A stretch of 57,870 nucleotides of DNA from Candidatus Margulisiibacteriota bacterium (GTDB lineage: Bacteria > Margulisbacteria > WOR-1 > O2-12-FULL-45-9 > XYB2-FULL-48-7): positions 1 through 57,870 of the forward strand of contig JBAZZV010000010.1 in the NCBI GenBank assembly GCA_041658645.1, given 5' to 3'. Each line of letters opens with the position of its first letter. The stretch's first letter is position 1. Below the pieces are notes generated by a model. The model saw nothing but the letters and a program-made list of their open reading frames with translations. It did no database searches and was not told the origin of the DNA. Position numbers and translations under genes: made by a program. Below are positions 49,643 through 50,368 of this stretch, in pieces.

Positions 49643-49691
49643 GTGTGTGTGTGTGTGTGGGGGGGGGGGGGGGGGGGGGGGGGGGGGGGGG
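49643..49691. repeat. (GT)8 microsatellite followed by a ~33-nt poly-G homopolymer
   Basis: gtgtgtgtgtgtgtgt then ~33 G, read directly from the sequence. Confidence 0.9.
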
Positions 49692-49951
49692 CAGACTATT
49701 TAATCTATCACTCATCATTATGATGAGATCACTCATCGGTAATTGTGTGTTCATTTTTTTACTTCTCTTTCCTTCCGAGCTTCCACCTCCGCACTCTAAG
49801 CGGACAGGTCGAAGAGCCAGGCAGTAATTTACATTACTACTAAGGAAGTATATGGCATTTAGCCCATTTGTCAAGTTGTTTTTGACCTATGGGCTATTCT
49901 TCTCTTATACCCAATTGGCTTAGACTGTAAGCCTGGAAGGAGGAATAATAA

Positions 49952-50368
49952 ATGGCAATTTTAAACGGCCTTGGCAAAAAGATCAAAATGCTAAGAAACG
50001 CAAGGGGCTTGACCCAGGAAGATTTAGATGGGCTTACTGGGCTACATTATACATTTATTGCTAAAATTGAAGCCGGGAAGAAACAACCTAGTTTAAAAAG
50101 CCTGGCAAAAATAGCTAAAGCGTTAGGCATCTCCCTTTCGCGGCTTTTTGAAGAAAAACAAAAGGTTCCTATCAAACCCCCGCTAAATAAATTAATAAAG
50201 ATTCTTGAAGATAGGGATCCAAAAGAAGTAAATCTTATTATCGAATTGGCAGAAACTATTTTTTCTAAAGCAGACAAGCTATTAAAACAAAAAGGGTCAC
50301 GACAAAAGTCGGGGGGGGGGGGGGGGGGGGGGGGGGGGATCAGGTTAAGGTATAATGGAAAGGAATGA
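49952..50368 (+). CDS. XRE-family (Cro/C1-type) HTH transcriptional regulator. The 3' end runs through the poly-G tract
   Basis: LRNARGLTQEDLDGLTGLHYTFIAKIEAGKKQPSLKSLAKIAKALGISL. The C-terminal SGGGGGGGGG is encoded by the G-tract, so the true C-terminus is uncertain. GGAGGA RBS. Confidence 0.55.
   Translation: MAILNGLGKKIKMLRNARGLTQEDLDGLTGLHYTFIAKIEAGKKQPSLKSLAKIAKALGISLSRLFEEKQKVPIKPPLNKLIKILEDRDPKEVNLIIELAETIFSKADKLLKQKGSRQKSGGGGGGGGGIRLRYNGKE
50311..50338. repeat. ~28-nt poly-G homopolymer at the island/core boundary
   Basis: Read directly from the sequence. Immediately precedes the rlmD start. Confidence 0.9.

Follow-up and report, generated by a model that had tools for sequence, protein, structure and literature searches.

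Slippage is frequent in G/C tracts above about 7–9 nt, and familiar elements of this composition are the fim poly-C tracts of Bordetella pertussis and the pilE G-quadruplex of Neisseria gonorrhoeae, which is linked to recombination. In Helicobacter canadensis, 3'-terminal poly-G tracts of 10–20 G display length variation at the level of reads and alter only the C-terminus of the protein (PMC2823697). Promoter-associated homopolymer tracts of B. pertussis are treated in PMC1891110. According to two further papers, G-rich homopurine runs block transcription depending on orientation and length, the G-rich strand being the non-template one (PMC3561996, PMC5499740). The present analysis concerns two poly-G tracts, designated tract 1 and tract 2, in contig JBAZZV010000010.1 (assembly GCA_041658645.1) of a Candidatus Margulisiibacteriota bacterium. 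The 57,870-nt stretch analyzed is referred to as the window; in it, the tracts lie on either side of a gene for an XRE regulator, between the gas-vesicle gene gvpA and an rlmD-like gene.

The locus resembles the 'C-terminal phase variation' of H. canadensis (PMC2823697) in that a poly-G run at the 3' end of an open reading frame (ORF) swaps short tails while the protein is kept, and in that tract length differs between sequence data sets, here known from assemblies alone. It differs in tract length (24 to at least 46 nt, compared with 10–20 nt), in the host, an uncultured environmental Margulisiibacteriota bacterium rather than a host-associated pathogen, and in the gene affected, a regulator rather than a surface or modification enzyme. 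With the B. pertussis tracts (PMC1891110), it shares an intergenic G:C homopolymer that precedes a structural gene, lies close to regulator sites (candidate sites in this case) and could tune transcription through its length. Known tracts of this kind, however, measure approximately 13–16 nt and occupy a set place relative to the -10 hexamer and an activator site, whereas tract 1 measures 17–33 nt and does not lie between predicted hexamers.

A likeness to G-rich transcription blockage, as described in PMC3561996 and PMC5499740, is that the G-rich strand is non-template for the genes that follow; a G-quadruplex motif is also trivially present. Those systems and pilE were characterized in vitro or through a defined motif, whereas the present locus is known from sequence alone. 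Long pure G runs at which contigs break also recall the dark-cycle tails of two-colour Illumina instruments (NextSeq/NovaSeq). Unlike such tails, the runs described here were associated with a four-colour platform, carry unique sequence on both sides of the same strand, recur at two fixed positions across several assemblies and are flanked by intact genes. The locus is unusual in its tract lengths, in its free-living candidate-phylum host and in the arrangement of two same-strand tracts around a regulator beside a gas-vesicle operon.

Both G runs are best read as real chromosomal, slippage-prone tracts of one Candidatus Margulisiibacteriota population, with unstable length and contingency-type behaviour; the probability of this reading was estimated at about 0.5. 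Tract 1 consists of 33 G at positions 49659–49691 of the plus strand, directly 3' of a (GT)8 repeat at 49643–49658, and tract 2 of 28 G at 50311–50338 of the same strand. These lengths and coordinates agreed with an initial annotation of the window, as did the (GT)8 repeat preceding one tract in the gap between gvpA and the XRE gene, and the second tract as the 3' end of the XRE ORF with an apparent poly-Gly tail. The same annotation had let tract 2 abut the rlmD start exactly at a boundary of guanine plus cytosine (GC) content; the boundary was found there, but 26 nt separate the end of the tract from the rlmD ATG.

Between the tracts, the GC content amounts to 0.38, compared with 0.565 in rlmD, which places the compositional boundary at tract 2. 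The gas-vesicle region (32215–49642) has a value of 0.44, and the backbone to its left and right one of 0.56. Tract 1 is situated within the 607-nt gap between gvpA (49135–49344, minus strand) and the XRE ORF (49952–50368, plus strand). The G residues of tract 1 and tract 2 alike are on the plus strand, which also codes for the XRE regulator and rlmD, and each tract precedes one of these genes.

Homopolymers elsewhere in the window did not exceed 8 nt, no G or C tracts of intermediate length (9–27 nt) were present in it, and the only dinucleotide repeat besides (GT)8 was (AT)5. Given the base composition of the window and independent positions, 2e-11 runs of G or C of at least 28 nt and 3e-14 of at least 33 nt would be expected by chance. 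Among 80 loci with rlmD that were retrieved from other genomes, none contained a G or C run of at least 12 nt. G33 and G28, along with (GT)8, satisfy the length expected of simple sequence repeat (SSR) contingency loci, as they exceed the size from which slippage is frequent, about 7–9 nt for G/C.

Contigs of the same population were identified by exact-protein look-up in ERZ27247322, ERZ27249422, JGI 3300028032, Logan SRR8449812 and Logan SRR8449827, and outside the tracts they were 100% identical to the window. JGI 3300028032 is a 2017 storm-water-catchment (SWC) sample from a landfill in Southern Ontario. Tract 1 was bridged in three assemblies with an identical left flank (...TTTTCC(GT)8) and an identical right flank, CAGACTATTT (CAGACTATTTAATC...). 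As listed in Table 1, tract 1 measured 33, 27 and 17 nt in these assemblies, and tract 2 measured 28, 24 and at least 46 nt. In the contig in which tract 2 ends as G24 followed by A (L003/L096), this A is the base that immediately follows tract 2 in the window. The junction between mutL and the low-GC gas-vesicle island was reproduced in three further contigs (L094, L096 and L097). When the JGI metagenome collection was searched for exact matches to the XRE flank plus GGGG and to the rlmD flank, neither pattern was found, the collection evidently lacking this population.

The initial annotation had named poly-G artefacts of two-colour chemistry, or chimeric joins, as one explanation of the tracts. 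On this account, dark-cycle tails or chimeras formed through homopolymers by polymerase chain reaction (PCR) made the join or joins, and the adjacency of XRE and rlmD as well as the right edge of the island would be unreal. The account agrees with tract 2 having been bridged once while other contigs break there, and with the GC shift located exactly at this tract.

HiSeq 2500 instruments use four-colour chemistry, in which a missing signal is not called as G, and dark-cycle tails consist of unique sequence followed by G at the 3' ends of reads. In the present contigs, G runs were followed by unique sequence on the same strand: G46 and G27 preceded ATCAGG... in L001 and L002, respectively, and tract 1 had the form (GT)8-G(n)-CAGACT in three assemblies. 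Judging from the chemistry, the rlmD-side G run read on the other strand would appear as unique sequence followed by C, unlike dark-cycle tails. The JGI-sequenced samples of the landfill site were run on HiSeq 2500 with 2x150 reads (PMC10076291), rather than on a two-colour instrument.

The two flanks of tract 1 were linked in each of three bridgings, and a chimeric join is disfavoured there because the same flank pair would not recur in three assemblies. The flanks of tract 2 both run into G on one and the same strand, and the genes on either side are intact; in L016, a contig of a related Margulisiibacteriota, the similarity to RlmD begins at residue 3. Since the tract takes up an interval of a few tens of bases bounded by two complete genes, with only 26 nt left before rlmD, a random misjoin is unlikely, and the base following G24 in L003 is that of the rlmD flank.

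Synteny points in the same direction. In a Saganbacteria/WOR-1 contig (L014) and in an unclassified bacterial metagenome-assembled genome (MAG; L015), homologues of the window genes at 12654–19795 stand directly upstream of rlmD; L014 also shares with the window the order in which aroA and pdh follow rlmD. Because homologues of left-hand genes are placed beside rlmD in these relatives, both halves of the contig belong to one ancestral neighbourhood. Taken together, the four-colour platform, the same-strand unique sequence, the reproduced flanks, the intact genes and the synteny make a two-colour artefact or chimera unlikely. The tracts are very probably real and not reliably measurable, and the XRE–rlmD adjacency and the right boundary of the island in the MAG are probably correct.

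The behaviour of comparable tracts was examined by scanning IMG/VR viral contigs for G25, which gave at least 120 contigs with 132 tracts among the matches listed. Approximately two-thirds of these tracts of at least 25 nt (89 of the 132 among the matches listed) lay no more than 100 nt from a contig end, and many internal ones were C-runs abutting G-runs, a misjoin-like structure that, like the terminal positions, favours an artefact. G or C runs of this size are thus not rare in assembled viral contigs, and poly-G is evidently a general trouble spot for metagenome assemblers. A dark-cycle orientation bias of terminal poly-G was expected in this set and was ruled out by the observed orientations, 34 versus 55 among the matches listed. 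Because terminal tracts occur both ways, orientation alone is no validated discriminator, and the case for real tracts rests on the combined arguments. A few IMG/VR contigs, among them L122, L150, L185, L201, L203 and L209, contained tracts with ordinary unique flanks and may carry real long tracts.

Slipped-strand phase variation, a second explanation first proposed for the tracts, proved the best supported, as length differed in every assembly; on/off placement was not found, and length variation within the population, like a phase switch, is putative. From the established behaviour of SSRs, tracts of this length must change length often by slipped-strand mispairing, and since slippage at such length must be frequent, contingency-type behaviour is anticipated. 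Very long G:C homopolymers would be copied faithfully by neither replication nor short-read sequencing, and for this reason the length would differ in each assembly and assemblers would break at the tracts. The printed G33, G28 and poly-Gly tail would then represent one sampled state.

Under this mechanism, slippage in tract 2 would cycle the XRE protein through three short C-terminal tails without ever switching it off, and one frame alone would put the XRE stop over the rlmD start. Slippage in tract 1 would shift the spacing or topology between the XRE-side operators and leftward promoter (49707–49896) and the conserved gvpA-proximal region (49345–49525). The predicted outcome would be phase or rheostat control of the gvpA/XRE/rlmD region, with stochastic cell-to-cell variation in how the gas-vesicle cluster and its neighbours are regulated. 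That variation in the XRE tail, in XRE–rlmD coupling and in gvpA/XRE spacing matters for regulation is a tentative proposal, much more doubtful than the reality of the tracts themselves.

The XRE ORF was assigned to its family by a match to HTH_3 (PF01381) over residues 11–64 with 56.2 bits, against a Pfam gathering cut-off of 23. Tract 2 contributes the last base of a Ser codon and nine Gly codons, yielding ...QKS-Gly9-IRLRYNGKE, and the XRE TGA overlaps the rlmD ATG at 50365 (ATGA) in the assembled form. When tract 2 lengths from 22 to 49 were computed, every XRE ORF stopped 2–9 residues past the glycines, the three frames ending in Gly(n)-IRLRYNGKE, Gly(n)-DQVKV and Gly(n)-SG. The poly-Gly tail is, on these grounds, a by-product of tract 2 and of the single assembled length, which bears out the suggestion that the XRE C-terminus hinges on the tract.

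The helix-turn-helix domain and the C-terminal helix region shared with the homologue P0002 were unaffected by the tract 2 frame. Any translational coupling between XRE and rlmD would depend on tract length, because the first frame alone puts the XRE stop on the rlmD start. Between tract 2 and the rlmD ATG, a TATAAT is present at 50351–50356 with a ribosome-binding-site (RBS)-like GGAAAGGA directly after it. As these two elements leave no space for a normal leader, rlmD transcription may rely on read-through across tract 2.

A protein homology search for relatives of the XRE regulator returned the window's own protein and one homologue, P0002, with 65% identity; an exact look-up of the 138-aa protein gave no other contig. 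P0002 ends 3 residues past the point at which tract 2 starts, and its locus (L012, Logan SRR22387865_956198, 262–1094) has no G tract. There, a gene of the HTH_17 type (excisionase/AlpA-like) follows the XRE homologue, which hints that this type of XRE regulator moves with mobile elements. Searches of viral contigs for XRE relatives and for (GT)n-G(n) yielded nothing useful.

Several observations weigh against the slippage reading. Neither the XRE homologue with 65% identity nor the sequences upstream of related gvpA genes contain the tracts, which are therefore regarded as recent and not conserved. At 28 to at least 46 nt, they are two to three times as long as characterized phase-variable tracts (10–20 nt, PMC2823697). 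Tract 2 is unable to turn XRE off in any frame, no predicted -35/-10 pair encloses tract 1, and neither tract lies in the 5' part of an ORF or in or next to a core promoter, the placements typical of contingency loci.

Further points on this side concern the data. Tract 2 was bridged in the window contig only, and the homology search revealed no second full-length copy of the XRE protein in the protein database. The differences in length between assemblies could stem wholly from PCR or sequencing stutter and assembler choices, and the assemblies compared may share read sets. The statement on HiSeq 2500 covers the JGI-sequenced samples of the site. The description that fits the tracts is accordingly 'working like' slippage-prone SSRs of the C-terminal and intergenic kind; to class the locus as phase-variable would go beyond what is proven.

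Three features of the assembly should not be read literally: the lengths of the tracts, the 138-aa XRE annotation ending in poly-Gly, and the seeming overlap of XRE with rlmD. The case also shows that real homopolymers are separable from poly-G artefacts without reads, by means of flanks that are reproducible across assemblies, same-strand unique sequence, intact genes, synteny and platform. If the length variation is real in vivo, a hypermutable simple-sequence element would lie beside a gas-vesicle operon and its regulator in a free-living candidate phylum, with tracts two to three times the length of those known from work on pathogens.

Among the other explanations, the one that survives best, although it is itself unlikely, holds that the tracts are real and neutral: scars or runaway expansions from the gain of an XRE module of approximately 800 bp (about 49530–50340), with length differences of technical origin. 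The segment at about 49530–50340 is not common to related gvpA loci, the closest XRE homologue stands in another context beside the HTH_17 (excisionase-like) gene without a G tract, and neither tract is placed for clean on/off logic. Because the window has no G/C tracts of 9–27 nt elsewhere, the two tracts look like products of local events rather than a genome-wide habit. Long homopolymers, however, are strongly mutagenic and usually purged unless tolerated or useful, and both tracts lie in short gaps between intact genes near operator-like palindromes, with G on the coding strand of the following gene in each case.

A somewhat less probable proposal is that the tracts constitute a selected device, serving either as length-tunable, orientation-specific barriers that insulate XRE and rlmD, or as direct repeats through which the 650-bp XRE cassette is deleted to give (GT)8-G(n)-ATCAGG. 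If this were true, the Margulisbacteria population would gain heterogeneous control of buoyancy, and contingency-locus biology would extend to free-living candidate phyla and to well longer tracts (about 25–50 nt).

Orientation-specific transcription barriers as such were considered improbable. According to this idea, an R-loop or G-quadruplex would attenuate rightward transcription into XRE at tract 1 and from XRE into rlmD at tract 2, tract length would set the strength, and leftward transcription toward gvpA would pass. For rightward transcription, the G-rich strand is the non-template one, each tract is upstream of XRE or rlmD, and this orientation is the blocking one in PMC3561996 and PMC5499740; an insulating position would also suit tract 1, which comes right after a terminator-like hairpin of rightward orientation. 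On the other side, the cited work was done in vitro, and the one abstract that names a polymerase names T7 RNA polymerase. The tracts are not conserved in relatives, and no convincing rlmD promoter was found between tract 2 and the ATG; since the TATAAT leaves the RBS no room, a strong block would starve the housekeeping gene rlmD.

Slightly more improbable is a collapsed join at tract 2, with a much longer G run or more G-flanked sequence between XRE and rlmD in the actual chromosome. The G46 of L001 compared with the G28 of the window and the failure of several assemblers across the tract agree with it, and as the XRE segment is itself flanked by G runs, further such units are conceivable. 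The A after G24 in L003, however, fits direct adjacency, and no orphan G-flanked contig turned up, though the collections were not searchable for one. The artefact account described above ranks last and is very improbable. G:C-tailed cloning inserts or terminal-transferase tailing were rejected, because they would give G(n)-insert-C(n), whereas both tracts are G on the same strand.

Table 1. Features around the two poly-G tracts (positions in the window) and the state of the tracts in individual assemblies.
Feature	Positions	Strand	Remarks
gvpA, gas-vesicle protein A (69 aa)	49135..49344	-	PF00741 on identical product; tract 1 in its upstream region
Terminator-like hairpin TCGCGGAAATCCGCGA and T-run	49614..49639	+	directly left of (GT)8
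(GT)8	49643..49658	.	eight units in 3/3 assemblies covering the region
Tract 1	49659..49691	+	G33 in window; G27 in JGI 3300028032; G10-A-G6 in ERZ27249422
Operator-like element	49707..49737	.	ATCACTCATC twice and palindrome CTCATCAT-t-ATGATGAG (49711-49727); directly right of tract 1
Strong sigma-70-like promoter TTGACA-16-TATACT	49847..49874	-	11/12 consensus matches; directed toward tract 1 and gvpA; predicted from consensus alone
Palindrome with 15-nt arms TAGCCCATTTGTCAA / TTGACCTATGGGCTA	49860..49896	.	overlaps -35 of the leftward promoter; candidate XRE operator
XRE/Cro-C1 helix-turn-helix regulator ORF	49952..50368	+	138 aa as assembled; HTH_3 at residues 11-64; last 18 residues (Gly9 + IRLRYNGKE) set by tract 2 length
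Tract 2	50311..50338	+	G28 in window
rlmD-like 23S rRNA (uracil-5-)-methyltransferase	50365..51618	+	first high-GC backbone gene; ATG over XRE stop in one of three tract-length frames
Tract 1 in window			G33
Tract 1 in L004, JGI 3300028032			G27
Tract 1 in L003/L096, ERZ27249422 k141_1053728			G10-A-G6
Tract 2 in L001, ERZ27247322			contig starts with G46, then ATCAGGTTAAGG...rlmD
Tract 2 in L002, Logan SRR8449812			contig starts with G27, then ATCAGGTTAAGG
Tract 2 in L003/L096, ERZ27249422			contig ends ...CAAAAGTC-G24-A (AAAAGTC-G24-A)
Tract 2 in ERZ27247322 k141_571833 (47 kb, with mutL and island)			ends in tract 2 by coordinate arithmetic, not direct reading

Upstream of gvpA, conservation between the window and two contigs with related gvpA loci (L010 and L011) reached no further than about 49525, so that tract 1, approximately 315 nt from the gvpA ATG, divides an XRE-side control block from a conserved gvpA-proximal block. 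Within the conserved part, TTATGATGA at 49421–49429 corresponds to a half-site of the palindrome beside tract 1. TAGCCCA/TGGGCTA half-sites surround the -35 of the leftward promoter and occur again within the XRE coding region (50028–50047). The repetition of these motifs at 49421–49429, 49711–49727, 49860–49896 and 50028–50047 suggests binding sites of a regulator. The single terminator-like site in 49100–50500 was no more than shuffled sequences would be expected to contain, and an Rfam scan of 49000–50600 gave no match.

A promoter-like TTTCCA-16-TATAGT was noted at 49513–49540 on the plus strand, with the hairpin and T-run at 49614–49639 following approximately 75 nt later. The stretch 49513–49640 (plus strand) could represent a small RNA of approximately 95 nt ending just short of (GT)8. 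A possible minus-strand ORF of 57 aa (49581–49754), preceded by the RBS-like GGAAGGAAAGAG, crosses tract 1 as poly-Pro followed by (Thr-His)n, and the tract-length frames would give products of 34–40, 54–57 or 69–71 aa. This ORF is probably not real, because no gene caller predicted it in any assembly and it overlaps the operator-like palindrome.

At least two other gvp clusters (L009, L010 and L011) were present in the same samples, with an identical GvpA protein and DNA identity of 73–84% in matching regions. Several related gas-vesicle-bearing populations therefore appear to coexist at the landfill site, which is probably the reason why the Logan contigs break inside gvpA.

The low-GC gas-vesicle cluster occupies positions 32215–50338 between mutL and rlmD and looks complete. 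It comprises gvpA, two further genes of the Gas_vesicle family, four GvpF/L genes (one fused to DnaJ), GvpG and GvpK, as well as an AAA_5 GvpN-like gene, a CDC48-like double AAA gene, Hsp20 and a PF25216 Volactin-domain protein. The three leftmost proteins of the island had no Pfam match.

G-quadruplex-forming elements marking an integration junction had also been proposed for the tracts. The quadruplex potential stands, trivially: four or more runs of at least 3 G with short loops are contained in any G run of at least 15 nt, which is a statement on sequence only. An integration junction found no support, as no integrase or transposase Pfam family appeared in the gene tables of the island stretches shown (approximately 32.2–50.3 kb), ARAGORN detected no tRNA in the window, the island boundaries have no common repeat of at least 9 nt except one inverted 9-mer, and the left edge of the low-GC region (approximately 32134–32215, beside mutL) is without a G tract.

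A clean insertion of the island, with mutL beside rlmD in relatives, was likewise rejected; the relatives lack a mutL–rlmD adjacency and have homologues of the 12654–19795 genes upstream of rlmD instead. This synteny supports the integrity of the contig, and not a simple insertion model. Homologues of the last of the 12654–19795 genes in L014 and L015 were 83–88% identical. In the present genome, these genes are approximately 30 kb from rlmD, separated by core genes at 19.8–32.1 kb and the gvp block. The arrangement of 12654–19795 and 50365–56553 suggests a larger rearrangement, beyond the insertion of an island.

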